Shown one piece after another: positions 12,525-37,729 of a stretch of DNA of 51,216 bases (the first letter of the stretch is position 1; every line of letters starts with the position of its first letter). Both the position numbers and the translations under genes were made by a program. Origin of the DNA: a virus (Duplodnaviria; Caudoviricetes); IMG/VR virus record IMGVR_UViG_3300046028_004317, positions 1 to 51,216 of that record; one strand, 5' to 3'. Below the pieces are notes generated by a model. It was given only the letters and a program-made list of their open reading frames with translations. It was not told the DNA's origin and did no database searches.

Positions 12525-13154
12525 ATGGGAAAGACATTAAAGTACGGCGACTTCAGTTTTGGATCTGAGAATGGTTACACGGGCAGCGCCGGAAAGCAGA
12601 ACGTTAAGGGGTACGCTAGGGGTGGCAAGGCTAAGAAGGGTGGCGATGAGATCGCTTTCCTTGAGCGAGCCAATGCCCCTCGTGATGTTCTGAGGCATGA
12701 GATGGCTGAGAGAGAGGGTGATGCCGAGCCGCATGGTATGGTCATTCGTGAGATCTCACTCTTGAAGAAGGTTGGAGCTCCAGCTAAGATGATCCGGGCC
12801 GAGAGGGAAGAGGCGGGATGTGCAGCTGGTGGCCCTGTAAAGGGCAAGGCTCAAAAGAAGGTCGGGCTCGTAATGTCCGAGTTCAAGAAGGGAGCTCTCC
12901 ACTCTGGCAAGGACGGCAATGTCGTTAAGAACCCAAAGCAGGCGCTTGCAATTGCTATGTCTGAGTCACGGAAGATGGGCCATGGCGGATCTGCAGCTGA
13001 AGACATGGCTGCTGACAAGAAGCTAATTGATCAAGAGATCAAAAAGCATGCTGACAAACCAGCGTCACAAGCACATAATGGTCTGAAACGTGGTGGAAAG
13101 GCTGTTCCTTCCTACTCTAAGTTGCCAAAATTTGGTAAAATAATCCCAAGATAA
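12525..13154 (+). CDS. Basic multi-module protein with DUF6496-like segment and x-A-x-GG motifs
   Basis: KVGLVMSEFKKGALHSG...KNPKQALAIAMSESRK (DUF6496-like, from recall); YARGG, CAAGG, MGHGG, LKRGG. Confidence 0.7.
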   Translation: MGKTLKYGDFSFGSENGYTGSAGKQNVKGYARGGKAKKGGDEIAFLERANAPRDVLRHEMAEREGDAEPHGMVIREISLLKKVGAPAKMIRAEREEAGCAAGGPVKGKAQKKVGLVMSEFKKGALHSGKDGNVVKNPKQALAIAMSESRKMGHGGSAAEDMAADKKLIDQEIKKHADKPASQAHNGLKRGGKAVPSYSKLPKFGKIIPR

Positions 13155-13214
13155 GTTCAACAATAACCGCTGGGTCTGCCGCATCGGCATTCCGAACTAA
13201 CAGGAGCAGACTCG

Positions 13215-14201
13215 GTGGCCGTATCTGGAACAGTATCCCAAACAACATTCAACACACGAAAAGTCATCGATCATGCTTTTCGTAGGTGTCGCCTTCCACC
13301 AGAGGGCGTTGCCGCTGAACAACTGCAGGTTGCCCAAGAGACCCTATATCTAATCCTATCGCGCCTTGCGAACAGGGGTCTGCAGCTGTGGTGTATCGAT
13401 AAAGTCATTCTGCCGATGTACGAGAACATGGCATCAGTCCCCGCACCTGTTGGTACGGTGGATCTTCTCAATACGAATCTGAGAACGATGCAGTACCTAA
13501 CTGGTGTTGCTACTGGAACCGCAACAACCTCATCACTCTTCGTTGCTTCTGGCGCAATCGTCACCACGATTGGTGTGCAGTGGAGTGCTGCATCGGCTCC
13601 ATTCGTAATCGAGTGGTCAAATGACGGCCTGACATGGACTACAATCGAGACGATTGCGAATCCAAACCTGAATGCAGGCGCTTGGACATGGGCTGACATC
13701 GATGGATCTGTTAACGCAACATACTGGCGTGTTAGGGTAACCCTTGGAGTTCTCTCGCAAAGCAGCGTTCTATTTGGCAATACGCCGAATGAGATCGTCA
13801 TGGCTAGACTCAATAGAGATAGCTACTCAACTCTCCCAAACAAGACATTCCAAGGTAGACCGCTACAGTTCTGGCTTGATCGTCAGGTAGATCAGCCGTT
13901 CCTGTATATCTGGCCCGTTCCAAATGCCGCGTTCGAGATAGCCCAGATCGTGACTTATGTTAAGCGTTACATCATGGACGTTGGTACACTCGCACAAGAG
14001 ATTGAAGTGCCGCAGCGTTGGTACGATGCAATCGTGTACCTGCTGGCTGCGGAGATGGCTGAGCAGTTGCCAGCGATTGATCCGAACATGGCGGCATTGC
14101 TGGATCAGAAGGCTCAGAGGTCATTGCTTGAGGCAGAAGAGGAAGAGAGAGATAATTCACCCGTCTACTTCACCCCTAACATTGGAGTGTACACACGATG
14201 A
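13215..14201 (+). CDS. Probable head-tail adaptor with inserted discoidin-like beta domain
   Basis: GTG start with aggag RBS; LANRGLQLW, GRPLQFW, LYIWPVP; insert IEWSNDGLTWTTI...YWRVR. Confidence 0.65.
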   Translation: MAVSGTVSQTTFNTRKVIDHAFRRCRLPPEGVAAEQLQVAQETLYLILSRLANRGLQLWCIDKVILPMYENMASVPAPVGTVDLLNTNLRTMQYLTGVATGTATTSSLFVASGAIVTTIGVQWSAASAPFVIEWSNDGLTWTTIETIANPNLNAGAWTWADIDGSVNATYWRVRVTLGVLSQSSVLFGNTPNEIVMARLNRDSYSTLPNKTFQGRPLQFWLDRQVDQPFLYIWPVPNAAFEIAQIVTYVKRYIMDVGTLAQEIEVPQRWYDAIVYLLAAEMAEQLPAIDPNMAALLDQKAQRSLLEAEEEERDNSPVYFTPNIGVYTR

Positions 14202-14425
14202 GCATATACCTCGATCCAACCGGGAAGTCCACATACGGCATTGCGCTATGCGCCCGCTGCAGCATAAAGATGTCAATCGAGGATCTGTACTCTGATCCAA
14301 ACAGCCCCGGTCTGATGGTGTGCGAGAAGGATCTTGATGACCTAGATCCGTATCGGTTGCCAGCAAGACAGACTGAAATTATAACGTTGAAGTTCACCCG
14401 ACCAGACACCCCACTGAGGCCCTAA
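14198..14425 (+). CDS. Small Cys-containing (Zn-finger-like) protein
   Basis: CARC ... GLMVC..D.D..DP; ATGA overlap. Confidence 0.65.
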   Translation: MSIYLDPTGKSTYGIALCARCSIKMSIEDLYSDPNSPGLMVCEKDLDDLDPYRLPARQTEIITLKFTRPDTPLRP

Positions 14426-14427
14426 AA

Positions 14428-17400
14428 ATGGCAGTCACAATTATCACAAAGAACAATGCAGCACCCGGAATCGCCCCATCAGCAGGGCAATTGGTTCAGG
14501 GCGAGTTGGCGATCAACGTCACAGACAACAAGCTCTACAGTCTTGATAGTGTTGGCAACGTTATTCTGGTGGCGAGTGGGCCACTTTTTGAGACCCCTGT
14601 TGTCATCAATGTCAACGATGCCACGCACAATGCCGTAACGATCACACAGACTGGTGCTGGCGGTGGTGTCAGGATTACAAATACGGGTGCGGGCAATTCA
14701 TTTGTTGTAGAAGACTCAGCAAATCCAGATGTCACCCCATTTGTTATTGATCCGAGTGGCAATGTTGGGATTGGCAACACCCCTAGCGGCGCGTTCAAGC
14801 TTGAAGTTACTGGCGGCGATGCGAGCATAAATACAGTAAGCATAGGATTGGGCGGCGGGAATGTAAGTACCAACATTGCTATAGGATCGACTGCACTCGA
14901 CTCAAACACAATTGGCACTAACAACACAGCTCTTGGATATGGCGCACTCACTACCAACGCAACTGGTGTTAGTAACACAGCCGTTGGATCTGCCGCACTC
15001 AATCTCAACACAACTGGTATTAATAACACAGCAGTTGGTAATGCCGCACTCGCTTCCAACACAACTGGCATTAACAACACTGCTCTTGGATATGCCACAC
15101 TCCAATCCAACACAACTGGTTTCAACAACACAGCAGTTGGTAATGCCGCACTCGCTTCCAACACAACTGGTATCCAGAACACGGCTCTTGGGAATGGCAC
15201 ACTCGGGGGCAACACAACAGGTTCCTTTAACGTAGCAGTGGGTTTGCAAGCACTTAACGTCTCTACAGTAGATAGCTTAACAGCCATTGGCTTCCAAGCT
15301 CTAAAGGCCAACACAGCTGGTACTGCTAACACAGCTCTTGGCTATCTTGCCCTAACTGCCAACACAACTGGCACTCAGAACACAGCAGTTGGAACTAGCA
15401 CACTCCAAGCCAACACAACTGGTACTAACAACACAGCAGTTGGTGTAAATGCACTCGCTACCAACACAATTGGTACTCAGAACACAGCAGTTGGTCGTAG
15501 TACACTCCTAAACAACACAACTGGTACTAATAACTCAGCAGTTGGATACAACGCACTCACTTCCAACACAACTGGTATTAGTAACACTGCAGTTGGCGAT
15601 AGCGCACTCTTCTCCAATACAACTGGCATTCAGAACACAGCAGTTGGTCGTAGTACACTCGCAGCGAACATCATTGGCTCTGGTAACGTAGCAGTTGGTC
15701 GTAGTGCACTCGCAGCTTCTACAGTAGACAACTCAACAGCAGTTGGATATAACGCCCTAACTGCTAACACAACAGGTGTTCAGAATACAGCTCTTGGGTA
15801 TACCGCACTCCTCGCTAACACAATTGGTACTAACAACACAGCCGTTGGATATACCGCCTTAGCTGCCAACACAACTGGTACTAGTAACACAGCAGTTGGA
15901 AGTGGCGCACTCTTATCCAACTCAACTGGTGTCCAGAATACAGCAGTTGGAGGTGGCGCACTCTCTACCAACTCAACTGGTGTCAATAACACAGCGGTGG
16001 GATATAACGCACTCTTATCCAACACAACTGGCGTTGATAACGTAGCAATGGGTCGGGGCGCACTCGCTAACAACACAACTGGCAGTAGTAACACTGCAGT
16101 TGGAAATACCGCACTCAATGCCAACACAACTGGTACTAACAACGTAGCAGTTGGACTTTCCGCACTCACTTCCAACACAACTGGTACTCAGAATACAGCA
16201 GTTGGAGTTTCTGCACTCGCTGTCAACACAATTGGCACTGCCAACACAGCAGTTGGAAATGGCGCACTCGCTCTTAACACAACTGGTGCCAATAACGCAG
16301 CGGTTGGAGTTTCCGCACTAAATGCCAACACAATTGGTTTCAACAACACAGCAGTTGGCTATCAAGCACTCTTCTCCAATACAATTGGTGTTGATAACAC
16401 AGCAGTTGGAAATGCCGCACTCAATCTCAACACAACTGGTGTTAATAACACAGCTCTTGGAAATGCCGCACTCGGTTCCAACACAGTAGGTATCAATAAC
16501 ACAGCAGTTGGTGTGAGCACACTCGCTGCTAACACAACTGGCGCTAATAACACAGCAGTTGGAGCTGCCGCACTCGCTACCAATACAATTGGTACTGCCA
16601 ACACTGCAGTTGGCGATAGCGCACTCTTCTCCAACACAACTGGTGTCAATAACACAGCCGTTGGTCGTAATGCACTCCAACTCAACACAATTGGTGTTCA
16701 GAACACAGCTCTTGGATCTAACGCACTAACTGCCAACACAACTGGCAATAATAATGCGGCAGTTGGATATAACGCACTCGCTGCTAACACAACTGGTGCT
16801 GAGAACACAGCAATGGGTCGGGGCGCACTCGCAAACAACACAATTGGCACTCAGAATACAGCAGTTGGATCTGTCGCACTCAATGCCAACACAACTGGTG
16901 CTTATAACACAGCAGTTGGCTATCAATCGCTCTACTCCAATACAACTGGTATTCAGAACACAGCAGTTGGTTTAAATGCACTCTTCGTCAACACAATTGG
17001 CGTTAACAACACAGCTCTTGGGTATACCGCACTCGCTGCTAACACAACTGGCGCTAGTAACACTGCAGTTGGAGCTGCCGCACTCGCTACCAATACAATT
17101 GGTACTCAGAACACAGCTCTTGGGTATACCGCACTCGTTGCCAACACAACAGGTATCAATAACACAGCTCTTGGGTATACCGCACTCGCAGCCAACACAA
17201 TTGATTCTAATAACACAGCAGTAGGCTCACAAGCACTCCTAAACAGCACAGCATCTAACTTAACAGCAGTTGGTTCCCGAGCTCTAAGGGCTAACACAGT
17301 AGGTACTAATAACACAGCAGTTGGATATTCCGCACTCATTGTTAACACAACTGGTCTCGATAACACAGCTCTTGGATCTAACACGCTCTCTGCTAACACA

Positions 17401-18843
17401 ACTGGCGCTTATAACACAGCAGTAGGTTCACAAGCACTCCAAGTCAACACTGGCAGCAGCAACACTGCAGTTGGCTTCCAAACCCTAGCTTCTAACACAA
17501 CTGGCGCTAATAACACGGCTCTTGGTGTTTTTGCACTCTCTTCCAACACAACTGGTATTGGCAACACAGCGTTGGGTGTGAGTGCACTCTCTTTCAACAC
17601 AATTGGCACTAACAACATAGCAGTTGGAGGTGGCGCACTCCAATCCAACACAACTGGTGTTAGTAACGTAGCAGTGGGTCGGAATGCACTCTTATCCAAC
17701 ATAACTGGTGTTGGCAACGTAGCAGTTGGCAATAACGCACTCGGCGGCAACATAGGTGGTACTAGTAACACAGCAGTTGGAAATAGCGCACTCAATGCCA
17801 ACACAGCTGGATCTAATAACGTAGCAGTTGGAGGTAGCGCACTCGTTGCCAACACAACTGGTACTGCTAATACTGCAGTTGGATTTAACGCCCTAACTAC
17901 CAACACAATTGGCACTAACAACATAGCAGTTGGTCAGAATGCACTCCAGAACAACACAACTGGTGTTAGTAACGTAGCAGTTGGGAATGCCGCACTCGGT
18001 GTCAACACAATTGGTATTAATAACGTAGCAGTTGGATTTGCCGCACTCAATGCCAACACAACTGGTGTTCAGAATACAGCTCTAGGCTATCAAGCACTCC
18101 AAACCAACACAATTGGTACTAACAACGTAGCCGTTGGATATAACGCACTCTTCTCCAATACAACTGGCATTCAGAACACAGCAGTTGGTGTAAATGCACT
18201 CACTGCCAACACAACTGGTGTTAATAACACAGCAATTGGTCAGAATGCTGGCGTAGTCCTTACATCTGGCGGAACAAATACCATTGCTGGTTACAACACT
18301 GGACTGCTATTGACTACTGGTTCCAGCAACCAAGTATTTGGTGACGCAATCACCCTTGCTGCTGCTGCGACTGGCCGTATTGCAATTGGTCGTAACTTTA
18401 CGCAGGGTGTGGATAACTCTGTAATCATAGGTAACGGTACTGCTCGTATCTCATGTCCGTACACAGCAAGTGCAGTATGGACATTCTCATCAGATGAGCG
18501 TATCAAGAACGTTGTCGGGAAAGATACCCTTGGCCTTGATTTTATTAATGAGCTCGAGCCCGTAACCTTCCGCTGGAAGCCATCCAATGAAATCACTGAG
18601 GATTTGACTACTCAGTACAAGGAAGAGAATGTAAAGGATACAGAGATAGTAATGCATGGTCTTATAGCGCAGAATGTAAAGGCTGCGCTCGATAAGGCTG
18701 GTGTGGATACATTCAGCGACCTATGGAGTACTGACGAGGATGGGACGCAGCGGCTGGGAAATGCAGCACTAATAACCCCATTAATCAACGCAATTAAAGA
18801 ACTAGATGCTAAGTTCGAGGCATACAAGGCAAGTCATCCATGA
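14428..18843 (+). CDS. Long tail fibre/adhesin: 17-aa tandem repeats plus C-terminal peptidase S74 intramolecular chaperone
   Basis: GELAINVTDNKLY N-terminal anchor; roughly 65 NTTGxxNTAVGxxAL repeats; SDERIK...GLIAQ...LINAIKEL. Confidence 0.9.
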   Translation: MAVTIITKNNAAPGIAPSAGQLVQGELAINVTDNKLYSLDSVGNVILVASGPLFETPVVINVNDATHNAVTITQTGAGGGVRITNTGAGNSFVVEDSANPDVTPFVIDPSGNVGIGNTPSGAFKLEVTGGDASINTVSIGLGGGNVSTNIAIGSTALDSNTIGTNNTALGYGALTTNATGVSNTAVGSAALNLNTTGINNTAVGNAALASNTTGINNTALGYATLQSNTTGFNNTAVGNAALASNTTGIQNTALGNGTLGGNTTGSFNVAVGLQALNVSTVDSLTAIGFQALKANTAGTANTALGYLALTANTTGTQNTAVGTSTLQANTTGTNNTAVGVNALATNTIGTQNTAVGRSTLLNNTTGTNNSAVGYNALTSNTTGISNTAVGDSALFSNTTGIQNTAVGRSTLAANIIGSGNVAVGRSALAASTVDNSTAVGYNALTANTTGVQNTALGYTALLANTIGTNNTAVGYTALAANTTGTSNTAVGSGALLSNSTGVQNTAVGGGALSTNSTGVNNTAVGYNALLSNTTGVDNVAMGRGALANNTTGSSNTAVGNTALNANTTGTNNVAVGLSALTSNTTGTQNTAVGVSALAVNTIGTANTAVGNGALALNTTGANNAAVGVSALNANTIGFNNTAVGYQALFSNTIGVDNTAVGNAALNLNTTGVNNTALGNAALGSNTVGINNTAVGVSTLAANTTGANNTAVGAAALATNTIGTANTAVGDSALFSNTTGVNNTAVGRNALQLNTIGVQNTALGSNALTANTTGNNNAAVGYNALAANTTGAENTAMGRGALANNTIGTQNTAVGSVALNANTTGAYNTAVGYQSLYSNTTGIQNTAVGLNALFVNTIGVNNTALGYTALAANTTGASNTAVGAAALATNTIGTQNTALGYTALVANTTGINNTALGYTALAANTIDSNNTAVGSQALLNSTASNLTAVGSRALRANTVGTNNTAVGYSALIVNTTGLDNTALGSNTLSANTTGAYNTAVGSQALQVNTGSSNTAVGFQTLASNTTGANNTALGVFALSSNTTGIGNTALGVSALSFNTIGTNNIAVGGGALQSNTTGVSNVAVGRNALLSNITGVGNVAVGNNALGGNIGGTSNTAVGNSALNANTAGSNNVAVGGSALVANTTGTANTAVGFNALTTNTIGTNNIAVGQNALQNNTTGVSNVAVGNAALGVNTIGINNVAVGFAALNANTTGVQNTALGYQALQTNTIGTNNVAVGYNALFSNTTGIQNTAVGVNALTANTTGVNNTAIGQNAGVVLTSGGTNTIAGYNTGLLLTTGSSNQVFGDAITLAAAATGRIAIGRNFTQGVDNSVIIGNGTARISCPYTASAVWTFSSDERIKNVVGKDTLGLDFINELEPVTFRWKPSNEITEDLTTQYKEENVKDTEIVMHGLIAQNVKAALDKAGVDTFSDLWSTDEDGTQRLGNAALITPLINAIKELDAKFEAYKASHP
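14890..18260 (+). repeat. 51-bp coding tandem repeat array (approximately 65 units)
   Basis: Recurrent aacacaactgg...aacacagcagttgg...gcactc; boundaries approximate. Confidence 0.9.
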
Positions 18844-19559: not shown

Positions 19560-19568
19560 GGAGCTGTA

Positions 19569-20222: not shown

Positions 20223-20224
20223 TT

Positions 20225-22999: not shown

Positions 23000-23223
23000 T
23001 CACACTACCAGTTATAATAGGATTGCTCGATTGGACTGATCAGGTCGCACTCGATCTGAATGTTTATGGAGCGATTGAGAAGTTGGAAGATGAGAGTAAA
23101 TGGCAAGAATGGGCTGTTGTCTTTTGCACAATGCCGGGAATTAGCCAGAAAAACCCGCCCGATCCAAAGGGCTTTACCGATTGGCGAGAATGGGCCAGTC
23201 GATTCGCGCAAGTTATGACATAG
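22996..23223 (+). CDS. Small Trp-rich hypothetical protein
   Basis: TTG start overlapping the upstream stop; WQEWA...PDP..FTDWREWA. Confidence 0.65.
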   Translation: MITLPVIIGLLDWTDQVALDLNVYGAIEKLEDESKWQEWAVVFCTMPGISQKNPPDPKGFTDWREWASRFAQVMT

Positions 23224-23233: not shown

Positions 23234-23518
23234 GTGGATAAGTTAGAGCTTTTCAACAAAATCGTGAAAGCTGCAAAACCCGCAAGTAGAGAAGATTCAC
23301 AGTCAAGTACGCTGGATGAAATGCTTGGCGATCTAGGAATAGATAGCCTTGATGCGATCATGCTTAGCATTTACTTTTCAGAGATATATGGTGTCTCAGA
23401 AGGGGTTTCAAAGACATTGATGCCAGCAACGCCTCGGCAGTTCTTTGAGATGTATGAGGCCAATGCGACAAGCGACCAGAAGACGATAGACGAGGCGATT
23501 GCGAGTATTAAGCTTTAG
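23234..23518 (+). CDS. acpP: Acyl carrier protein
   Basis: Acidic, 94 aa; LGDLGIDSLD phosphopantetheine motif (Ser codon 23345-23347); gggag RBS with GTG start. Confidence 0.85.
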   Translation: MDKLELFNKIVKAAKPASREDSQSSTLDEMLGDLGIDSLDAIMLSIYFSEIYGVSEGVSKTLMPATPRQFFEMYEANATSDQKTIDEAIASIKL

Positions 23519-23519
23519 T

Positions 23520-27237: not shown

Positions 27238-27246
27238 GGATCAGAT

Positions 27247-28233
27247 ATGTCAATCTCAGACTTTCTATTTAATGGTGCTCCTCCAGCGTCTATCAAGACG
27301 TATGGAGTGGCGGCAACTACTCAGCCTGCGTGGTACTCAGATTACACGCAGGGCCTGATTGAAAAGGCTAATTCGATTGCATCATCGCCTTATCAACCCT
27401 ACGGATTGAATAGGGTTGCCGGGTTCGCTCCAGAGCAGCAGAAGGCGTTTGCTGGAGTTGATGCTGCTGCGGACTCTTGGAAGCCAGCGTTTAATCAGGC
27501 AGCTCAAGCTATAAATGCTGCCGGGAGCTCCACTGGCCTTTCTGCGGCTCAGCCATACTTCAATCAAGCCTCACGGACAATACCTAGCGGGGTTTCAGAC
27601 TACCTGAATCCGTATACTGAGAATGTAGTTAATAGGCTTGGGGATCTGGCTAAGAGGCAAGTATCTGAGAACCTTATTCCAACCGTTCAGGGGCAGTTCA
27701 CAGCTGGCGGCACATTTGGCGGAAGCAGGTCTGGTAAGGCATTGGCTCAAGGATTGAGAGATATCCAAGAGTCAACGATGGCCCAGCAATCTGCAGCACT
27801 TGAGCGTGGGTATACTCAGGCTGGCGCTCAGTTCACTTCAGATCAGAATAGATTGGCCCAACTGGGTCAGGCTTCTGGAGCTCTGCAGACATCAGACTTG
27901 AACAGATATCTTGATATCGCTCGTCAGCAAGAGACTCTTGGTGGATTGCAGCAGCAACTTGGGCTTACTGGATTGGCCGCGCAGGAAGCGGTTGGCGGTC
28001 AACAGCAGATGCAAAACCAAGCCAATCTTGATTGGGCATACAAAGACTTCTTGGCTCAGCGCGATAGGCCGCAGGATATGGTTTCATTCTTGAACCAGAC
28101 CCTTCGTGGGCTTGAGATACCTAGTCGGACAGCTACAGAGAATGTTGCTCCTGCACAGGTCTATCAGCCATCAGGTCTTGCATCTCTGGCAAATGCTGCG
28201 GTAACTGCTACAGCTCTTAGTAAAATTAAATAA
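27247..28233 (+). CDS. Internal virion / DNA transfer protein
   Basis: PAWYSDY, YQPY..NRVAGF, YLNPY, GTFGGSRS, Q/A-rich helices. Confidence 0.75.
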   Translation: MSISDFLFNGAPPASIKTYGVAATTQPAWYSDYTQGLIEKANSIASSPYQPYGLNRVAGFAPEQQKAFAGVDAAADSWKPAFNQAAQAINAAGSSTGLSAAQPYFNQASRTIPSGVSDYLNPYTENVVNRLGDLAKRQVSENLIPTVQGQFTAGGTFGGSRSGKALAQGLRDIQESTMAQQSAALERGYTQAGAQFTSDQNRLAQLGQASGALQTSDLNRYLDIARQQETLGGLQQQLGLTGLAAQEAVGGQQQMQNQANLDWAYKDFLAQRDRPQDMVSFLNQTLRGLEIPSRTATENVAPAQVYQPSGLASLANAAVTATALSKIK

Positions 28234-28241
28234 GAGGGATT

Positions 28242-31200
28242 ATGCCAAACACTCAAGGTTTAGAGCCAACGACAGTATATGGAGATCATCCAGATGATCT
28301 AGGAGCCACCACCCTAACTGGGACAACCCCATACTCCTCAGAGCTATCTAAGATGCTCGGAGAGTATGGCCCTGCGCTTCAGCAGAGATCTAAGCAGAGG
28401 CGTGACGTATTGGATCAGGCACAGGAGAGGTTGCTGAGCAGGATTAAAGATCCGATGACTGATGCCGTCTCGCTATTCAAAATAGCGGCGGCATTTGGCA
28501 AGCCAACCCGCACTGGTGGGTTTGGTGAGACGATGGGTAATGTCGCAGAGGCTGCTGGTAACGAGGCAGAACGCCGCCAGCAACAGCAGTGGGCATTGCA
28601 AGATCTTCAGCAGAAGTATCAGACTGCCGGGATCGATCAGCACGTTGAGGGATTAGAGAACCAGATCGGTGTTGTAACCAAGCTCGCCCAGATAAACAGG
28701 GGTCGCGTTCCTGAAGTTATGCAGCTGACAGAGGCATTGAATGGCCTGCCTAAAGGCCACCCATCTATTCCTGTTATTCAATCTAGGCTTGATTATCTGT
28801 CCAACCCAAACCGTGGTCAGCAAACAAACCCGCCAGAGATTATGCGTTTGGCGGCTGTACTTGAAGACCCGAATGCAACTCAGTCACAGAAGAGAATTGC
28901 ACAGCAGGCAATAACCAAGGCTAATCGTATTCCTCCAGAGGCAGCTCCAAAGAGCTTGATCCCAACCAAGCTCAGCAATCAAGAAATAAAGATGAAGAGC
29001 GACACGATAGATAAGATAGATACCGGGAGGGATATTATCGGGAATCTTGAGCGGGCTATTAAACTGAGCCCGATTGCATATACTGGCCGAACAGCTGGGG
29101 CACGGGAATTTGTTGGCTCAGTAATCCCCGGAATCAGCTCAAGTGATGCACAGAATGCAACGACAGAGCTGGATAACATATTAAAAGGTAACGCATTAGC
29201 CAGCTTGAAAGCAACCTTTGGCGGAAACCCAACGGAAGGTGAGCGCAAGATTCTGTTGGAGATTCAGGGGGCAATTACTCAGACCCCTAGAGCAAGGGAG
29301 AAGATCTTTAAAGAGGCTCAAAGGCTTGCAGCTCGAAGAGTGGCGCGTCACCAAGAAAAGCTAAAAGATATCGAATCTGGCTCTTATTCAAGCCGTAGCC
29401 CAGATGATGCTGTAATTGAGGACGCTCCAGAAGAAGTTAGCAGCCAAGATCAGGAGACACTAAAGAGAGGACGTAGAGGATTCGCAAGTGGCGGTGCTGT
29501 TCATATGGCGGATGGTGGTGGATTAACACCCGCCAATATTGGTCGCGCTGGAATGCAAGGCGCTACCCTTGGCTTCGGTGATGAGGCCATTGCCAGAGTT
29601 AGATCTAAGCTAGAGAACAGGCCGTATGAGGATCTCCTTGCTGAAGAGCGGGCATCATACAAGCAGTTCTCTGATCAGTATCCACTCACCTCCCTCGGAG
29701 CTGAAGTCGTTGGCGGAATTATCCCAACGGCGGCAAGCTTTGCTATCCCCGGAGCTCAGCCACTCGGTGTGGCTAGGGCTGGTCAGACCGTAGGAAGGGT
29801 TGCTAAAGCATTCCAGAGCCCGGTTGCCAAGCTTGCCGGAACATCCGGCGGCGTTGGATTCGTTAGCGGGATGGGAGCGGGTGAGGGTGATATGTCTAAC
29901 CGCCTTGGATCTGGGGTCGAGACTGGATTGACATCAGCGGTTGCTGGGCCAGTTCTGTCCAAGGCCGCAACTGGAGCTGGCTCAGCTGGTAGAGAGATCT
30001 ACTCAAGGCTTCTGAGCTCACCAGATGCATCCGAGAGACGTGCCGCAGAGAAGGTTCTGCAGGCAATGGGAAGGGACTCGATTAACCCACAAGACCTGCG
30101 TACTTCGATGGCGAAGGATCGTGCGCTTGGCGTTCCATCAATGCTGATGGATTCCAGTCCAGCACTCAAGTCTCTGGGTGAGGCCGTTGTTACCTATCCC
30201 GGCTCGGGCGGCAAGATACTTGGCGAGAAGCTTAACCAGCGTCTGGATGAGGGTCGTGAGCGTGTTGGAGCTCGCGCACTGCAGCACATCGGCAAGGGCG
30301 TTGACTTCACCAAGGAAGAGAGCAACTTAGTTGGCAAGCTCAGATCAAATGCATCTAATGCCTATGATGAGGCTTATGCCCATGGCGAGATAAATGACCC
30401 ACGCATTACACATGTTCTGCATGATGACACCTTCAAGAAGGCATATGTAGAGGCTCAGTCGATAGCCAGTAAAGAGGCTCGTGCTGCAGAGTTGAGGGGC
30501 GAAGATCCATCTAGGTTCATGCTCAAGCAAATGTATCAAGTCACTCCTGATGGCGTTGCCACTCTTGTGAGTCTCCCAGATGTCCGCACCCTTGACTACG
30601 TCAAGCGCGGGATCGATGCGATGATTGATAAAGGTTACAGCGGATCTGGGATGTCTAAGGCCGAGGCTTCTGCCCTTAAAGATCTGAAGCGGGCCTTTGT
30701 CAGCACCATCGATGAGGCAACCACAGTAGATGGCGTATCCAAGTATGCACAGGCGCGGGCTAAGTATGCTGGCGACCGTGAGGTTCTTGATGCCCTGCAG
30801 CTCGGCAAGAATGACTACCTATCACCAAAGATGCTCCCAGAGCAGGCCAAGAACCTTGTCGCCGGGATGTCTGGCGGCGAGAGAGACGCTCTCAGGGCTG
30901 GTGTTGCACAATCGATTCTGTCTAAGGTAATGGATAGCCCGCAGCAAATCAACGCAGCACAGCGCGTCATAGGCTCGCCATCTACCCGTAAGAGATTGTC
31001 GGTACTGTTCGACAAGCCTGAAGACTATCAACTGTTCGAGAACGCCCTTACTCGTGAGAGCGAGCTGTTCAGGAACGCTCAAGACATCGTCAGGGGTAGT
31101 CGTACCGCCAACAAGGCAGCTGCCATGCAAGATCTGAAGAACCCAAGCAGGCTTCTGGATGTTGCCGGGGACGCAGTTGACATGTCAATTGGCGGAACTG

Positions 31201-31505
31201 GAACCATCATCGGTAAGGTTCTGAAGTTCATCCAGTCTGGTGCGAGTCTTGATGAGAAGACCGCCGGGAATGTTGCACACATTCTCAAGGCTGGGAGCCC
31301 GAACGAGGTTGGACATGCTTTAAATCTATTAGAGGCACACGGCAAGGACTTTGCGAAGCGACAGTCTGTTAGAGGTATGACAGAGAGAGGAATCTCCGCT
31401 GAAACGGGTATACTTTCAGCTCCAGAACCATCAGCTGAATACAACCCAGAGCCTGCAGTCGATGTTGACCAAATAATGGAGAGACTAAAAAGTGAGCAAC
31501 AGTGA
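28242..31505 (+). CDS. Large internal virion / DNA transfer protein; two halves joined at FASGG-MADGG
   Basis: Helical N-terminal half; C-terminal half begins QGATLGFGDEA and has Gly-rich hydrophobic segments. Confidence 0.75.
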   Translation: MPNTQGLEPTTVYGDHPDDLGATTLTGTTPYSSELSKMLGEYGPALQQRSKQRRDVLDQAQERLLSRIKDPMTDAVSLFKIAAAFGKPTRTGGFGETMGNVAEAAGNEAERRQQQQWALQDLQQKYQTAGIDQHVEGLENQIGVVTKLAQINRGRVPEVMQLTEALNGLPKGHPSIPVIQSRLDYLSNPNRGQQTNPPEIMRLAAVLEDPNATQSQKRIAQQAITKANRIPPEAAPKSLIPTKLSNQEIKMKSDTIDKIDTGRDIIGNLERAIKLSPIAYTGRTAGAREFVGSVIPGISSSDAQNATTELDNILKGNALASLKATFGGNPTEGERKILLEIQGAITQTPRAREKIFKEAQRLAARRVARHQEKLKDIESGSYSSRSPDDAVIEDAPEEVSSQDQETLKRGRRGFASGGAVHMADGGGLTPANIGRAGMQGATLGFGDEAIARVRSKLENRPYEDLLAEERASYKQFSDQYPLTSLGAEVVGGIIPTAASFAIPGAQPLGVARAGQTVGRVAKAFQSPVAKLAGTSGGVGFVSGMGAGEGDMSNRLGSGVETGLTSAVAGPVLSKAATGAGSAGREIYSRLLSSPDASERRAAEKVLQAMGRDSINPQDLRTSMAKDRALGVPSMLMDSSPALKSLGEAVVTYPGSGGKILGEKLNQRLDEGRERVGARALQHIGKGVDFTKEESNLVGKLRSNASNAYDEAYAHGEINDPRITHVLHDDTFKKAYVEAQSIASKEARAAELRGEDPSRFMLKQMYQVTPDGVATLVSLPDVRTLDYVKRGIDAMIDKGYSGSGMSKAEASALKDLKRAFVSTIDEATTVDGVSKYAQARAKYAGDREVLDALQLGKNDYLSPKMLPEQAKNLVAGMSGGERDALRAGVAQSILSKVMDSPQQINAAQRVIGSPSTRKRLSVLFDKPEDYQLFENALTRESELFRNAQDIVRGSRTANKAAAMQDLKNPSRLLDVAGDAVDMSIGGTGTIIGKVLKFIQSGASLDEKTAGNVAHILKAGSPNEVGHALNLLEAHGKDFAKRQSVRGMTERGISAETGILSAPEPSAEYNPEPAVDVDQIMERLKSEQQ

Positions 31506-34500
31506 GCTTAATCAGTTAAGGCAGAAGTACGCTATTGGCGGCGCTGTCGCCAAAAAGTTTGTCTCATCTATCGACAATGCAATCCAGACCCTTAAACAGC
31601 AGAAGGGTACTGGTGAGCAGATGCTCAAGCAGATTCAATCTTCCGGGGTCAAGAAGGAGGAGATGGATCTCCGCCGCGTCCCCCAGTTCCTAGCGAATAA
31701 GCCGTCAGTCACCAAAGAGCAGCTGGCTCGCCATCTTGAAAAGAATCCAATCCCACAGATCAATGTAATTGAGAAGGTTAGTAAGTTCGGCGGGAAAAAT
31801 CGTCAGTGGCAAGATCCCGATGGCGCGTGGAACAATAACCATGCAAAGTTTGGTGATGCAACCCTGCAAACACCGGGCGGGAAGAATTACAGGGAGCATC
31901 TGTTACAGCTGCAGATGCCAGCACTATCAAAAGAGGATATATTTAAGAATGTATCTAATAAGTATAAGCCAGAGATAGAAGAGCTCACTAGAGCGTATCG
32001 TTTAAGAATCGATAACGGTGAGGATGCGAGCGCCTTCTCTGACCGCATAGACCATCTCATTAAGAAAAGAAACAGTGAGGCGGAAGCGGAGGCTTCATTG
32101 TCGCGTGACAATGAGTATTCTAACGGTCACTGGGACGAGCCGCAGGTTGTTGCCCATGTGAGGATGACAGATAGGGCAGGGCCTGAAGGAGAGAAGATCC
32201 TGCATGTCGAAGAGATGCAGTCTGATTGGCATCAGCAGGGACGAGAAGCAAGAAAGGGCCAAGCGAAAATTCTCGCCAGAGAGAAGGGGATATCGGTTGC
32301 GGATGCCCTCAAGGAGATCCCTGCAGATGCCGGATACCTAACGCCTAAAGATGACGCTGCCCTTGCAAAGCTCAATAAGGATATCTATCGAGTTGGAAGA
32401 GAGGGCGTAAACGAAGAAGAGATTAAGAATCACTTTGTTCCGGGGAGAGTTATCAGATCGAATCTACTCGACCAAGATCTTGTCAACAATTACCATGACA
32501 AGGTATTGGCCTTTGACCCAAAGGGTGGCCGTGGCCTCGATATCTCTAAGTGGACTGTTGAGACAGCTAGGGAATTTCCACATAGTGGGCAGCGAGAGTT
32601 AAGGGTGCTCGATGAGGATGGACAGTGGAGGGGAACATACTCTGGCTTTAGTGGAACTGATGCTGATGCTATAAAGCAGGCCGCCGCAAGAAGTTCTCCA
32701 GTGTCGTGGTCGGCAAGAGTGATTGAAGTAGATCCAAAAACTGGCGAATCAGTTCCCGGCGCATTGCCAAGGGATATTAGTAATCAGTCAAACATTGACC
32801 GTACCGATCCAACACTCAACACTCTTAGATCATATAGAGAGCAGCGCGATGCGCTTAGCCGCAAGGTTCCTGACGCTCCATTCAAGTCAACATGGCCCGA
32901 CTTAGTTGTTAAGCATGTATTCGATACTGCAGCCAGAGAGGGATATGACAAGGTTTCATTTGCCCCAGCTGCAGAGCATATCAAGCGATACAACATGGCG
33001 AATTATGTTGATGAGATCACTGCCACCTTACGTCCAAATGGAAAGTTTGACATACAGGGCATAAAAGACAAGACCCCTATTCTTGATTCAAAAGGTATAT
33101 CTAGGGAGGATCTGGCTGCTCATGTGGGCAAGGATCAGGCCGAGAAGATTGTGAGCCAGATTGATAATAGGCCAAAGCAAGATCCATCATGGGATGAGAT
33201 TGACCCCCCAATGGTAAGTCTCGCTGGTGAAAACCTGAAGATGGGGACGAAGCAGGCTGCGGGGATGGTTAAGTTCTATGACGAGATGCTCCCGAAGCTT
33301 GTGGATAAGTACTCATCCAAAGAGTTTGGGGTGGGAGCTGGTAGGACGTTCATACCCGAGCTGGATACAGGAAAGAATCCATCACTTACTCCAATGGGCT
33401 GGGCAGAGTCTCGGCGTGTTGGTAACGCATTCTCTGTAGATATCCCACAGAGCACAAAGGATAAGATCCTATCCCAAGGTCAGAAGCTATTCTCTGTTGC
33501 ACCAGCTGCCCCAGTTGGGCTTGGTCTATCGCAGGAGGAGCCAGCTAAGTATGCCAAGGGTGGTATTGCTAAGAAGCTTGCAGAACGTGCGGCAAAGTCT
33601 ATTGAGTCCAAGGTTAACCGGGCCAAGACAGAGTGGGAGATATTGCATGATACAGCTCAGAAGAATGCAGCTCTACCAAAGGATAAGGGCGGACTAGGAC
33701 TGCCTGCAGATAATACCTATATAGACAGAGCTAATGCTATGGGTAAAAAAGATGTGTACCACGGGACAAAGCAAGACATAACGGGGGCATTCAAACCGGG
33801 GTATGACGATAACTTGGCTTTTGTAACCGAGTCCCCAGAATTTGCAAGTAAGTGGATTGGTAAGGGCAAGTTGCAACAACGCTCTGGTGGGCAGGCAGAG
33901 CAAGAAGTAAAGTCAGCTGAAGATGTATATCGTGGAATACGGACAAAGCATTTGTATTCTGATGACGCTCTTCAGCGATTGGAGGGTGATGAGTTCAATA
34001 AGGAGTACGACCGCAGAAATGCATTATCCAGAGCTGATCAACTAAAAGAATTTGGGGGCGCTATGATCCCAGACAAAATGCACTCAACGGTTTATCCGAT
34101 GAAGGTTGATGCCAACAAAACATTCAACCCGGAAACTGACATGCATGTAATGTCGGAGTTCTTTGAGAAAAACAACATACCTTCAGACGTTCAAGATCTT
34201 TATACTGGCGGCAATTACATGATGTATGAGACTAAGCCAGTGGTTGGGTATCTAAAAAGCAAAGGGTATGACTCAATGAGGTTGCGTGAGTCTACTGGAG
34301 ATGATTACCCAACGATTGCGGTATTTAATCCATCTCAAGTACGCTCCCGCTTCGCCGCCTTCGATCCTTTCCGTAGACATGAAGCAGACATTCTTGCTGG
34401 TGTAGGTGTTGGCGGAGTGCTTGCCCCAGAGTTAATATCCGAAGAGCTCAATAAGCTCAAGAAGAAGTATGCCAAGGGCGGCGAAGTTGCTAAGAATAGG

Positions 34501-36867
34501 GCATATCAGGGCGAGGTTAGGAACACGCCACAAAATAAGATACTTGGTCTGGCCGCTCATCTCCTGAAGCCTATCTCTGAGTTCGCCGGGAAGTATACGG
34601 TTCCAGAGAGAGATCCAATATTTGGCGGGATGACTGGTGCTGATCTAACAGGTGTCGAGTCATTGCGTAAGGTAGCTGAAGACGCGAGCTATAGAGTACC
34701 TCCGACAACTGGCAGGGGCATGACGATAACGCTCAAGCCAGAAGTTGTTGATGCCGCTGGTGGGGCTACATTACTTGGTCAAGCTGGCAAGGCATTTGTC
34801 AAAGGTGCTGCTAAAGAAGCCGCTAGACAGATTCATACTGGTACTGGGGTTCTGGGTAGTAAGGTGATTGACCCTCGCCAGAGAATGTTTGTTGGCGAGA
34901 AATCACAGACTTGGGACTCTCCGGCAGCTGCCAAAGCCGCTGAGATGGAGAGTGCTGGCGAGAGCCCTGTAAAAATATGGGCAGCGACAAAGAACTTTAA
35001 AGGGCCAGACAAAAAGTGGCGGCAAGAGATTGATGACAGTGTTGCGCCATATTCTGCGAATGCAGCGAGTCTTGGGAGCCAAGCATTTAAGCAGAAGCAA
35101 TATGATGAGGCCGTTCATGCGTCTAAGTTAAAAGAGATCATGGATACTCATAGCATCGGGACTGCTGATGCGAGCAAGATATTTGCAGATAAGTACGGTC
35201 GGGAGCCAATTTCTGGATCAGTTTATCTAGCTGATAGGACAAGGGGTCATGACTTGGCCCGAAACGAAGCTGAAGCACTGTCCAGTCTGCAAGACAAGAA
35301 CTTCTATGGACATACCAAGGAGTTCTATGACAATCCAAGGCTTTATGAGGCATATCCGCATCTAAAAAATATGCTCACCCATGTTGAGGATATTCCCCAT
35401 GCTGGCGGGGTGTTTAGCCCATCCGGCGGCGGTTCTTCTGCATACATTACCCTCGATAGACGTTCTGGAAAGCCTGAACTATTGCATGAGATGCAGCATG
35501 CGATTCAAGATAAAGAGGGTTGGGCAAGAGGTAGCAGTCCAGATGCAATGTTCTCATCAAAAGGGACAATAGGGCCAAACACTCTAAACCCAGAAGCGCA
35601 GAAAATATTTGATGGCATGGTTAAAGCTGGCCTCAAGCCCTCGCAAGATGACGCTGCACGGGAAGCTTATCATCGCCATGCTGGAGAGGTTGAGTCCCGC
35701 CTAACTGAAGCCCGCATGAATATGACTCCTGCAGAACGTGCGGCAAACATTCCTAAATATGATGTTCCAGTCGAGGATCAGATCGTTAAGTTTAAGTATG
35801 CCAAGGGCGGTAAGATTGCCAGTGCTGGCGGAGACTGGTTGGCAAAGAAGCTGGTTCAATATCAAGAACAGGCCAGACCTAGTAAAGCTGAGAATATAGC
35901 AGCTGGGCTCTATCACCCCATAGGTGGCGGAATTAAGTTGGTGAAGCCCTTGTCAGAGATGACATCAACTAGAGTTCCAAACACTCCAATGGTTCCCCGA
36001 AAAGCAATCTCTCCAGAGGAGCTGTATGGAAGCTACATCGTTCCTGCACTTGGAGATAGAACCGCTGCAGGGTCACTGTTAACCCATATTGGTGAAGCCA
36101 AGTTAGATATCCCGGTTCAGCTTGAGGGTGGCGCAGACTTCATGAGATCGCATGCACCATATGGAGCCGCATGGGCTGCAGACAAGGGGGCGGCATCGAG
36201 CATTTCCAAGCAAATAAGAGGTGCAGCCGAAAGCGGTAGAGATGTTTACATGCCGTATGTTGCAATGGCGCACACCCCTAGCGGTGACTTCTCAACGATG
36301 ATGGCTAATAGCCTGTTGGAGCAGATCGGAAATAGCAAGATTACCAAAAAGGCTGTAAAGGAATTCGATAGGAACGTTAAGGCAGTGCGTCCAGAGTTCA
36401 AGGGGTTATTGCACCCAGAGACACGGGACATGCTTAATGACAATGGTGCGCTACGGCATGCGTTTGTTGCCGAGATGGGGTTAAAGCAAAATGCTAATGC
36501 AGGGTTTCCAGATCTCGCAACTACTCGGGCAGCGATAGCTGAGCCCGAACTTCTGGATGCGCCGCTTCACTCTTCAGGGTTCACCATAGCAAAGATGGAT
36601 CCAGCTGGCGGCATCATCACAGACCCGGCATCACCAGCTCATACCTCTTACAATACTCAATTAGCAGGGAAGTATGTTGGCGGGTTCGCTGCACAGCCAC
36701 CAAGAAGTGTAATGTTCCCAACATTCTATAATGCGAGAAGGGCTGCGGGCACTCCAGAGTTTGGTGATCCGAGGTCGTTCCAGTTAGGGCATCCCGGTCA
36801 GGTTGCTAACCAAGAGTGGCTGGATAGCGTAATGAACTGGATGGAGAAGAACCCAAAGGTTAAATAG
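31492..36867 (+). CDS. Large polyvalent injected protein, four modules including ART-PolyVal-like and LPD23/zincin-like domains
   Basis: EEMQSDWHQ module; VYHGT...GYD...AVFNPSQVRSRFAAFDP; FVGE...KWRQEIDD plus LLHEMQH...GEVESR; modules separated by KYA(I/K)GG. Confidence 0.75.
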   Translation: MSNSELNQLRQKYAIGGAVAKKFVSSIDNAIQTLKQQKGTGEQMLKQIQSSGVKKEEMDLRRVPQFLANKPSVTKEQLARHLEKNPIPQINVIEKVSKFGGKNRQWQDPDGAWNNNHAKFGDATLQTPGGKNYREHLLQLQMPALSKEDIFKNVSNKYKPEIEELTRAYRLRIDNGEDASAFSDRIDHLIKKRNSEAEAEASLSRDNEYSNGHWDEPQVVAHVRMTDRAGPEGEKILHVEEMQSDWHQQGREARKGQAKILAREKGISVADALKEIPADAGYLTPKDDAALAKLNKDIYRVGREGVNEEEIKNHFVPGRVIRSNLLDQDLVNNYHDKVLAFDPKGGRGLDISKWTVETAREFPHSGQRELRVLDEDGQWRGTYSGFSGTDADAIKQAAARSSPVSWSARVIEVDPKTGESVPGALPRDISNQSNIDRTDPTLNTLRSYREQRDALSRKVPDAPFKSTWPDLVVKHVFDTAAREGYDKVSFAPAAEHIKRYNMANYVDEITATLRPNGKFDIQGIKDKTPILDSKGISREDLAAHVGKDQAEKIVSQIDNRPKQDPSWDEIDPPMVSLAGENLKMGTKQAAGMVKFYDEMLPKLVDKYSSKEFGVGAGRTFIPELDTGKNPSLTPMGWAESRRVGNAFSVDIPQSTKDKILSQGQKLFSVAPAAPVGLGLSQEEPAKYAKGGIAKKLAERAAKSIESKVNRAKTEWEILHDTAQKNAALPKDKGGLGLPADNTYIDRANAMGKKDVYHGTKQDITGAFKPGYDDNLAFVTESPEFASKWIGKGKLQQRSGGQAEQEVKSAEDVYRGIRTKHLYSDDALQRLEGDEFNKEYDRRNALSRADQLKEFGGAMIPDKMHSTVYPMKVDANKTFNPETDMHVMSEFFEKNNIPSDVQDLYTGGNYMMYETKPVVGYLKSKGYDSMRLRESTGDDYPTIAVFNPSQVRSRFAAFDPFRRHEADILAGVGVGGVLAPELISEELNKLKKKYAKGGEVAKNRAYQGEVRNTPQNKILGLAAHLLKPISEFAGKYTVPERDPIFGGMTGADLTGVESLRKVAEDASYRVPPTTGRGMTITLKPEVVDAAGGATLLGQAGKAFVKGAAKEAARQIHTGTGVLGSKVIDPRQRMFVGEKSQTWDSPAAAKAAEMESAGESPVKIWAATKNFKGPDKKWRQEIDDSVAPYSANAASLGSQAFKQKQYDEAVHASKLKEIMDTHSIGTADASKIFADKYGREPISGSVYLADRTRGHDLARNEAEALSSLQDKNFYGHTKEFYDNPRLYEAYPHLKNMLTHVEDIPHAGGVFSPSGGGSSAYITLDRRSGKPELLHEMQHAIQDKEGWARGSSPDAMFSSKGTIGPNTLNPEAQKIFDGMVKAGLKPSQDDAAREAYHRHAGEVESRLTEARMNMTPAERAANIPKYDVPVEDQIVKFKYAKGGKIASAGGDWLAKKLVQYQEQARPSKAENIAAGLYHPIGGGIKLVKPLSEMTSTRVPNTPMVPRKAISPEELYGSYIVPALGDRTAAGSLLTHIGEAKLDIPVQLEGGADFMRSHAPYGAAWAADKGAASSISKQIRGAAESGRDVYMPYVAMAHTPSGDFSTMMANSLLEQIGNSKITKKAVKEFDRNVKAVRPEFKGLLHPETRDMLNDNGALRHAFVAEMGLKQNANAGFPDLATTRAAIAEPELLDAPLHSSGFTIAKMDPAGGIITDPASPAHTSYNTQLAGKYVGGFAAQPPRSVMFPTFYNARRAAGTPEFGDPRSFQLGHPGQVANQEWLDSVMNWMEKNPKVK

Positions 36868-37021
36868 GCGGAAGCTCTAAGATCTCTCTCAGGTACTTAG
36901 ACACGTCATCGATCAGCCATTCCGTCTTGTGAGAGAATTGACCGGGGAATGGCTGTGCACTTTCAACGGCAGATTCAACCATTGTCATTAGATGCTCATA
37001 CTGGATCTGATTCTTGTCCAT
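36860..37021 (-). CDS. Small antisense-oriented hypothetical protein (moron-like)
   Basis: gaggg RBS before the ATG at 37021; TATAAT on the - strand at 37048-37053; fills an otherwise empty gap. Confidence 0.55.
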   Translation of the reverse strand: MDKNQIQYEHLMTMVESAVESAQPFPGQFSHKTEWLIDDVSKYLREILELPPI

Positions 37022-37069
37022 GATGCCCTCGCTGTAGATAAACATATATTATACACCATAGGAAGGTAG

Positions 37070-37729
37070 ATGATGAATAAAGCCGCGATTGCTAGAGTGC
37101 TATGCAAAATGGGTAAGTCCAATCTCTCTGCTGGTGAGACATCTGAGTGTCTGCAGGGCATGAAGGGGTTAATTAAGGTGCTGAGCAGTCAATTTGCATC
37201 TGGCGGCAAGGTTGGCTCTAGTATAAAATCCACTGAGCGGCCAGCTCTTAAAAAGACAGACAGATTTACTACTGCTGGCAGGCCAGTATATGAGAATCCA
37301 GAGGGTGAGCTGGTATCAGAGAAGTCGATTACCGTACCAATTGATGGGAGCTGGATCAACGTTCCAAGTATCCATGACGGGGTGCAGCATGATGAGGATG
37401 ATGTTATCCACATGCTAAAGTCTGGGAAGATACAGCCGACCAGTGTCCATCCAACGCTTGAAGATGCGATTGGTGCAGCACAGCGGCGCAGCTCTGGACT
37501 CCTCTCTTACCAGTCAGGTGGGTTTGTCCCGACTACTCCACCTCCGCCAACTAGGAAGTTCTATGGCACATGGAATGGCAGGCCCGTGACAGAGGAGCAG
37601 ATGAAGGTGCTTGAGGCGACTCAGGCTCAGAACGAGGCGAATGACCCGATCCAGCAAGAGTTGAATGACTATGCAAGAGAGGCTACGGCTCGAGCTGCTG
37701 CCAGACGAGCAGCTGCTACAACCAAATAA
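37070..37729 (+). CDS. Hypothetical late protein with FASGG / YQSGG-flanked domain
   Basis: GRPVYENPEGELVSEKSITVPIDGSWINVPS domain lies between the two motifs. Confidence 0.65.
   Translation: MMNKAAIARVLCKMGKSNLSAGETSECLQGMKGLIKVLSSQFASGGKVGSSIKSTERPALKKTDRFTTAGRPVYENPEGELVSEKSITVPIDGSWINVPSIHDGVQHDEDDVIHMLKSGKIQPTSVHPTLEDAIGAAQRRSSGLLSYQSGGFVPTTPPPPTRKFYGTWNGRPVTEEQMKVLEATQAQNEANDPIQQELNDYAREATARAAARRAAATTK

Follow-up and report, generated by a model that had tools for sequence, protein, structure and literature searches.

A short peptide motif at the joints between modules of phage ejected proteins, and its possible role as a processing site

The window analyzed here is a 51,216-nucleotide stretch of a tailed phage genome (Caudoviricetes; IMG/VR record IMGVR_UViG_3300046028_004317, positions 1 to 51,216). 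Five of the 38 ORFs taken as genes contain the peptide motif [Y/F/M]-A-x-G-G, with 12 strict copies in total. The first ORF (12525-13154, + strand) encodes a 209-aa basic protein (DUF6496) with one strict copy, YARGG, at nt 12612-12626 (aa 30), which has a matrix score of 18.6 (matrix described below). It also has three relaxed copies, CAAGG at 12819, MGHGG at 12975 and LKRGG at 13083. A relaxed YQAGG is also present in the capsid protein.

The second ORF (25105-27237, + strand) encodes a 710-aa, tape-measure-like ejection protein with no Pfam or PHROG family. The Gly/Ala-rich N-terminal part is followed by a Q/P/G-rich low-complexity middle, which carries the relaxed copy AARGG at 26326 and the strict copies MADGG at 26350 and YADGG at 26455 and 26533, and then by a conserved C-terminal module. 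A homologue is present in 68 of 80 related loci. The last 78 aa of the protein (27001-27234, aa 633-710) form a long version of the motif, named T1 here, which consists of YAGGG, 7 aa, GRSDDVPAMLSNGEYVMDAESV and a conserved basic tail. T1 is defined as G-R-x-D-x-[IV]-P-A-x-L-S-x-G-E-[YFH]-V preceded by x-A-x-G-G, 68-70 aa from the C-terminus, and is found in 15 related loci at the same distance from the end. The adjacent ORF (27247-28233, + strand) encodes a 328-aa protein matching PHROG 4287 'DNA ejection protein'. It has no copy of the motif, but is present in 68 of 80 related loci and serves as a context marker for the ejection-gene block.

The third motif-bearing ORF (28242-31505, + strand) encodes a 1087-aa all-helical ejection-type protein with PHROG matches at residues 265-384 and 433-1044. 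A tandem pair, FASGG at 29481 and MADGG at 29505 (aa 414-426), lies in the joint between the N-terminal and C-terminal domains. The fourth ORF (31492-36867, + strand) encodes a 1791-aa polyvalent protein with four modules: A (about 6-670), B (722-999, ART-like), C (1081-1442, LPD23 plus HEMQH at aa 1332-1336) and D (1451-1786). The LPD23 match is at aa 1132-1185 (E 5e-12, 45.9 bits against a cut-off of 27). ART-PolyVal scores 19-24 bits, which is below the cut-off of 31.2, although module B is shared at 56-71% identity with proteins that carry PF18760. HEMQH is followed by KEGW and has no Pfam match at E<=1, and its look-alikes in the Atlas are LPD23 clusters. The copies in this protein are YAIGG at 31528 (aa 13) and YAKGG at 33550 (aa 687), 34468 (aa 993) and 35797 (aa 1436). 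The fifth ORF (37070-37729, + strand) encodes a 219-aa protein with FASGG at 37193 (aa 42) and a relaxed YQSGG at 37508. This is the weakest member, and it has no homologue in the 80 loci.

The motif is enriched. Within-protein shuffles of the 14,578-aa proteome give a mean of 1.0 copy (sd 1.0, maximum 6 in 2000) compared to the 12 observed. Of 27 x-A-x-G-G pentamers, 8 start with Y, 2 with F and 2 with M. The pattern was defined after it was seen. All 160,000 'abxcd' patterns were also scanned. With the repeat-rich, tailspike-like ORF 14428-18843 left out, YAxGG is the top pattern (observed 8, expected 0.27, Bonferroni-corrected P 7.7e-5) and the next pattern is not significant; with that ORF included, its own repeats dominate the list. 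A matrix trained only on relatives, with the proteins of the window excluded, recovers 10 strict copies plus AARGG at 26326 above the 95th percentile of the best score in a shuffled proteome. The copies at 27001 and 35797 score between the median and that mark, and FASGG at 37193 scores below the median. No other ORF has a hit. The first-pass annotation noted that most copies are followed by x-[V/I], which holds for 9 of 12.

The motif is also conserved in relatives. A single-sequence search for related loci found none, but an alignment-based search was successful. The 80 related loci contain 184 copies compared to 40.7 +/- 6.6 in shuffled sequences, and 181 of these lie in + strand ORFs of 300 aa or more. 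A KAS-like gene is present in only 20 of the 80 loci. Of the 120 listed homologues of the 1087-aa protein, 100 carry at least one strict copy. Residues A415, G417 and G418 are invariant in 27 sequences, inside an otherwise unalignable joint. Synonymous codons vary at the conserved positions (Ala GCA/GCT/GCC/GCG; Gly GGT/GGC/GGA) and the mean pairwise nucleotide identity over 45 nt is 43%. Therefore, selection acts on the peptide and not the DNA, and a DNA-level repeat or recombination site is rejected.

The motif is one unit of an 8-residue element, [Y/M/F]-A-x-G-G-x-[V/I/L]-x, which occurs singly or as 2-3 tandem units. It lies in predicted disordered joints, near N-termini and near C-termini of proteins that leave the virion through the tail channel. 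In podophages such as this one, these are the ejection proteins and their polyvalent cargo, while in sipho- and myophages they are the C-terminal parts of tape measure proteins. The AlphaFold2 model of the 1087-aa protein has pLDDT<50 and coil over residues 384-446. A model of the last 120 aa of the 710-aa protein has a mean pLDDT of 52.8, so no fold can be read. A fold search with the 1087-aa model gave no PDB match at E<=0.001, and the viral library gave only uncharacterised phage proteins with low TM-scores, a few of them named injection protein, LT_GEWL or M15B. Sequence searches of solved structures found nothing for the 1087-aa family, the 710-aa protein or the 1791-aa protein. The motif marks the places where modules are inserted, lost or permuted. 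Whole modules are inserted between motif copies in homologues, and modules B, C and D of the polyvalent protein occur in other orders in homologues. Of 268 BLAST match ends, 71 lie within 20 aa of a copy, against 23.6 expected.

The T1 module is widespread. A profile search finds 17,130 cluster representatives at E<=1e-3, and T1 is also present in the annotated tape measure proteins of Arthrobacter phage Faja (twice), mycobacteriophage Douge gp16 (twice) and Caulobacter phage GB2A. Douge gp16 was the only solved structure matched by T1, and its motif regions are not modelled. No Pfam family covers the element, and searches for literal motif strings found no phage paper. A 2023 structural paper states that alignment showed no conserved motif between tape measure C-terminal fragments (PMC10713586). 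A TonB-box or LysM-like reading of T1 and of T2, a second conserved element that follows the motif (G-R-x-G-D-T-x-L-A-H-I-x-P-x-E), is not favored, since T1 occurs in phages of Actinobacteria and Pfam sees no LysM. A resemblance of T1 to the S24/S26 peptidase strand is also not favored because the position that would hold the nucleophile is variable in the alignment. What appears to be new is one short peptide element shared by podophage ejection proteins, polyvalent cargo proteins and tape measure proteins of several phage families.

The preferred, but tentative, explanation (probability about 0.4) is that the motif is a recognition site for proteolytic processing in the joints of tail-channel proteins, with the cut most likely between the aromatic/Met residue and the Ala. 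The only mapped precedent found is phage T5 pb2, which is cut after R1127 (PMC10038345). Residue 1128 starts AEGG, one of only two A-x-G-G in 1219 aa, and R-A-x-G-G is kept in 6 of 6 T5-like tape measure proteins, down to 37% identity. Lambda gpH has strict copies FATGG (733) and YATGG (778), with a shuffle P of 0.003. These lie in the Gly-rich C-terminal region, from which a fragment of about 14 kDa is removed at an unknown site (PMC12617516); the stretch GGAVGGGASASGG lies around residues 705-722. A cut between F733 and A734 would give 79.8 and 12.5 kDa, against the published values of about 78 and about 14 kDa. Under this reading, the 1791-aa protein would give pieces of about 75, 34, 48 and 38 kDa, and the 710-aa protein would shed a 77-aa C-terminal peptide. 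Polyvalent proteins were previously predicted to be processed into separate units (PMC5512222).

However, no cleavage has been observed for any strict copy, so processing remains an inference. The link to lambda and T5 is only at the level of pattern resemblance, since the T1 profile does not detect lambda gpH or T5 pb2 even with all filters off, and T5 has R rather than Y/F/M before the Ala. Conserved tandem copies 8 aa apart are more than a protease site needs and suit a structural or multivalent binding element. The flanks also differ by context: basic in the polyvalent protein, D/N at x in the 1087-aa family, and Arg plus Leu in the long forms. HK97 gp16, 80alpha gp56, P22 gp7, gp20 and gp16, and T4 gp5 have no copy. 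The known cut of P22 gp7 is not at such a motif and neither, apparently, is that of T4 gp5. No protease was identified among the Pfam and PHROG matches of the ORFs scanned; candidates are a host enzyme, the HEMQH domain, or the conserved element that follows the motif in the long forms. The HExxH module does not track the motif, since motif-rich relatives lack module C and distant polyvalent proteins that have it mostly lack inter-domain copies.

An unlikely, more speculative possibility is that T1 and T2 are small assembly-triggered self-processing modules, which would cut the bond just before A-x-G-G in cis and perhaps cut the stand-alone copies in trans. This would explain why the site and element are found together in phages of Gram-negative bacteria, Actinobacteria and cyanobacteria, why no protease gene is seen, and how lambda gpH becomes gpH*.

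If the motif is a processing site, it predicts A734 as the new N-terminus in lambda, a question open since 1983, and gives a rule for predicting the mature pieces of polyvalent proteins. If it is instead a docking element, it points to a shared step in the assembly or ejection of these proteins. Either way, it is a practical marker for module boundaries and ejected proteins in uncultured phage genomes.

The next explanation, which is less likely, is an uncleaved docking or assembly strand. Each 8-residue unit would be a short strand plus Gly-Gly turn that binds a common partner, or other copies, transiently and multivalently, either to hold ejection proteins and cargo together during assembly or to guide threading through the channel. 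The 8-residue periodicity with alternating hydrophobic positions, the conserved tandem arrays of 2-3 units and the many copies per protein agree with this. The motif regions are also unresolved in the solved virions of Douge and lambda, as expected for transient linear motifs. However, AlphaFold2 gives no strand or hairpin, only low-confidence coil, no partner was identified, and the exact coincidence with the T5 cut is not explained.

A passive flexible hinge is doubtful. In this case the Gly-Gly joint would only give flexibility to proteins that must unfold and pass a narrow channel, and would persist because linker and module travel together in recombination. The location in disordered joints and the module shuffling fit this idea. 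However, a hinge does not need an invariant Ala, an aromatic/Met residue and a hydrophobic residue at +6, the surrounding linkers are unalignable while the motif is invariant, and the DNA is not conserved.

The first-pass annotation proposed a shared tag for either proteolytic release of cargo modules or loading into the head. The motif is indeed real, non-random, confined to the ejection-type and polyvalent late proteins and located at module boundaries, and no canonical prohead protease was found by Pfam or PHROGs. Proteolytic release is plausible, but head loading as the general role is not supported and seems improbable. Three of the five proteins carry a copy within the first 45 aa, and copies are confined to proteins expected inside the head. 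However, the motif and its long form are common in tape measure proteins, which assemble in tails and never enter heads. Most copies are internal; in relatives, 17 of 183 copies lie within 50 aa of an ORF end, and a rough estimate is that about 20 would be expected if copies were evenly spread. The suggested analogy to adenovirus and ASFV, read as a cut after Gly-Gly by a phage cysteine protease, is also not supported and is very unlikely despite the invariant Gly-Gly, as discussed below. A double-glycine leader does not fit, since only 3 of 12 copies lie within the first 45 aa and no C39 family was detected by the searches made. Chance or composition is refuted by the within-protein shuffles, the unbiased scan, the independent matrix and the conservation in homologues.

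The closest known system is the maturation cleavage of tape measure proteins, T5 pb2 into pb2* and pb2C and lambda gpH into gpH* and gpHC. In both, a tail-channel protein sheds a C-terminal piece, and the 710-aa protein carries its last copy 78 aa from its C-terminus. The sequence YAGGG...GEYV in the 710-aa protein also resembles AEGG...GEHG after the T5 cut, although cleavage of the 710-aa protein is only inferred. The difference is that this is a podophage in which the proteins sit in the head, and there are many copies, most of them internal. The 1791-aa protein resembles the polyvalent proteins of phages and conjugative elements (PMC5512222) in having LPD23 and a possible ART-like module and in lying in a late operon. 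That paper predicts processing by embedded zincin-like peptidases, but its main text describes no junction motif, and most distant polyvalent relatives lack the motif. The T4 capsid targeting sequence, which is likely N-terminal and cut after Glu by the gp21 prohead protease, is similar as a short peptide on internal proteins that combines recognition and removal. Here, most copies are internal, no prohead protease was found by Pfam or PHROGs and the motif also occurs in tail proteins. In P22, gp7 is an ejection protein of a podophage without a prohead protease that is trimmed by the host enzyme OpdA (NC_002371), but the site after residue 20 is not motif-like. Adenovirus and ASFV Gly-Gly-X processing also involves an invariant Gly-Gly in virion proteins. 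However, no CE-clan or other cysteine protease was detected among the ORFs scanned, Ala stands four residues before the putative cut where Met/Leu/Ile would probably be expected, and the only mapped phage cut lies before the Ala.

The 51,216-bp contig reads as a podophage-like genome. The packaging and head genes include a large terminase (1215-2705), a portal (2716-5250), a GroES-like gene (5659-6078) and a major capsid protein (8161-9078). The GroES/Cpn10-like gene is on the + strand between the portal and the head genes, and a similarly annotated gene sits in the head region of MW202675. The tail genes include a 1471-aa repeat-rich tailspike-like protein (14428-18843, + strand), which is built of many short repeats (NTxVG 33 times, NTTG 38 times), and further tail proteins. 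A block of large late proteins follows, encoding proteins of 710 aa (25105-27237), 328 aa (27247-28233, PHROG "DNA ejection protein"), 1087 aa (28242-31505) and 1791 aa (31492-36867). The 1791-aa protein carries LPD23 and a weak ART-PolyVal match and is a polyvalent protein in the sense of Iyer et al. 2017. Its ORF starts with GTG and overlaps the end of the 1087-aa ORF by 14 nt (31492-31505). Just upstream of the ejection-protein block, a beta-ketoacyl-synthase-like gene (23499-24644, + strand) sits inside the late structural operon. It matches the Pfam ketoacyl-synt N and C domains and PHROG 35856, keeps the ...ACASG... Cys, HGTGT and ...GH... motifs that would be expected of an active condensing enzyme, and is present in 20 of 80 related loci. 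A 151-aa ORF (24648-25103, + strand) immediately upstream of the ejection-protein genes has the same length and relative position as P22 gene 14 (151 aa, "head morphogenesis"), which precedes genes 7, 20 and 16; this resemblance is one of length and position only.

The first-pass annotation reported 12 strict copies of a [Y/F/M]-A-x-G-G motif, and all 12 are at the positions it gave. They fall in 5 of the 38 ORFs taken as genes. The relaxed copies and a YQAGG in the capsid protein were also placed correctly. Four tests show that the enrichment is real. Shuffling each protein gives 1.0 copy on average (maximum 6 in 2000 shuffles) against 12 observed. Since the pattern was chosen after being seen, all 160,000 patterns of the form a-b-x-c-d were scanned. 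With the repeat-rich ORF 14428-18843 included, its own repeats fill the top of the list; without that ORF, YAxGG is first (observed 8, expected 0.27, corrected P 7.7e-5) and nothing else is significant. A scoring matrix trained only on other genomes recovers 10 strict copies plus AARGG (26326) above the 95th percentile of the best score of a shuffled proteome. The matrix places the copies at 27001 and 35797 between the median and that mark, scores FASGG at 37193 below the median, and hits no other ORF. The codons at the conserved positions are synonymous-variable; therefore, the conserved thing is the peptide and not a DNA repeat.

The motif is also conserved in relatives. The 1087-aa protein has many relatives at 45-56% identity (299 at E<=0.001), and 100 of 120 of these carry at least one strict copy. 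In an alignment of 27 of them, A415, G417 and G418 are invariant although the surrounding joint is otherwise unalignable. The joint is typically two or three tandem units, for example ...A-N-G-G-L-V-G-Y-A-D-G-G-P-V-H-M-A-N-G-G..., and in several homologues hundreds of residues are inserted between units. An alignment-based scan of viral contigs gave 214 relatives, of which the best 80 loci were kept. These loci hold 184 strict copies against 40.7 +/- 6.6 by shuffling, although the ORF sets are rough (stop-to-stop segments chosen greedily by length) and the shuffles ignore the relatedness between sequences, so the counts are not independent events. Of these copies, 151 lie in + strand ORFs of 600 aa or more, 30 in + strand ORFs of 300-599 aa, and 3 elsewhere. 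In 10 related loci, the large protein downstream of the anchor gene ends with [Y/F]-A-K-G-G-x-V followed by a Lys/Arg-rich tail, with the motif 14-41 aa from the C-terminus. A logo from 543 distinct copies shows an 8-residue period, [Y/M/F]-A-x-G-G-x-V-x.

The first-pass annotation also stated that the motif falls between modules, and this is supported. In the AlphaFold2 model of the 1087-aa protein (mean pLDDT 61), residues 384-446 have pLDDT below 50, are coil, and lie between two helical domains. The two PHROG matches of this protein end at 384 and begin at 433. The 1791-aa protein was analyzed by comparison. Its 81 relatives share only pieces. BLAST shows four modules (about 6-670, 722-999, 1081-1442 and 1451-1786) that occur in other orders in other proteins, and the match ends pile up at 999-1006 and 1442-1450, that is, at copies. 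Of 268 match ends, 71 lie within 20 aa of a copy against 23.6 expected, although these are again not independent events. P0122, a close relative of 997 aa that is 88% identical to aa 1-992 of the 1791-aa protein, ends one residue before the Tyr of the third copy in the 1791-aa protein; either the gene is split exactly at the joint or the contig ends there. The N-terminal copy of the 1791-aa protein at aa 13 depends on the GTG start; relatives keep the same N-terminal sequence (P0122; QKYAGGGRVG in related loci). In the 710-aa protein, the copies sit in a Q/P/G-rich low-complexity stretch.

The last copy of the 710-aa protein heads a conserved C-terminal module, referred to here as T1, which consists of YAGGG, 7 residues, then GRSDDVPAMLSNGEYVMDAESV and a basic tail. 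A tblastn search with this end of the protein found annotated tape measure proteins of Caulobacter and Arthrobacter phages. Faja carries T1 twice, as does mycobacteriophage Douge gp16, but only residues 1658-1699 of the latter protein are modelled in the structure. T1 sits 68-70 aa from the C-terminus in 15 related loci. A second long form, T2 (FARGGL, 7-12 aa, then GRxGD[TS]xLAH[IV]xPxEA), sits in the N-terminal part of the same protein family in 32 of 80 related loci but does not occur in the window. A profile of T1 finds 17,130 cluster representatives at E<=0.001, and the best 150 of these hold 182 strict copies against 17.1 +/- 4.0 shuffled. Pfam covers neither form. No description of the element was found in open-access full text: the motif strings found no phage paper, and the main text of Iyer et al. 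does not use the terms "linker", "glycine" or "GG motif". A 2023 paper states that alignment showed no conserved motif between tape measure C-terminal fragments (PMC10713586).

The element is a conserved linear peptide in predicted disordered joints and near the ends of proteins that leave the virion through the tail channel, and it marks exchangeable modules. It may be a processing or recognition site with the cut before the Ala; this reading is tentative (probability about 0.42), and no protease was identified. The HEMQH module of the polyvalent protein does not co-occur with the motif across relatives. Directly after HEMQH (about 35485-35540, aa 1332-1350) comes ...KEGWARGSSP, and in distant polyvalent relatives the aligned stretch reads EGFA-x-GG-SP, a motif-like string beside the putative metal site that could be a coincidence or a pseudo-substrate. 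The main rival, an uncleaved multivalent docking strand, is less likely, although the conserved tandem periodic arrays favor it. The head-loading tag proposed in the first-pass annotation is unlikely as the general role since tape measure proteins carry the element, and its analogy to adenovirus and ASFV processing is not supported.

Two tape measure proteins with known cleavages resemble this pattern. The T5 tape measure protein pb2 is reported to be cut after R1127 (PMC10038345). In the T5 record residue 1128 begins AEGGMMYPGVSYQMGEHGTEVV, and A-x-G-G occurs only twice in 1219 residues. R-A-x-G-G and G-E-[H/N]-G-x-E are kept in 6 of 6 T5-like proteins, down to 37% identity. However, the T1 profile does not detect lambda gpH or T5 pb2, so the link rests on pattern resemblance, and T5 has Arg rather than an aromatic residue before the Ala. 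In addition, HK97 gp16, 80alpha gp56, P22 gp7, gp20 and gp16, and T4 gp5 have no copy.

Lambda gpH has FATGG at 733, followed by ...PAGIVHRGEFVF, and YATGG at 778 (shuffle P 0.003). The cut in gpH is unmapped; a cut at F733|A734 would give 79.8 and 12.5 kDa, which is close to the published estimates of about 78 and about 14 kDa. The Pfam lambda family PF09718 ends at residue 701, before this region. The core after FATGG matches 1044 phage records. All 4 tape measure proteins retrieved from that list, from Jk06, a P2-like Mannheimia phage, Pseudomonas phage Cruim01 and Klebsiella phage MMBB, show F-[A/S]-x-G-G, then G-E-[F/Y]-V, then one or two further Y-A-x-G-G.
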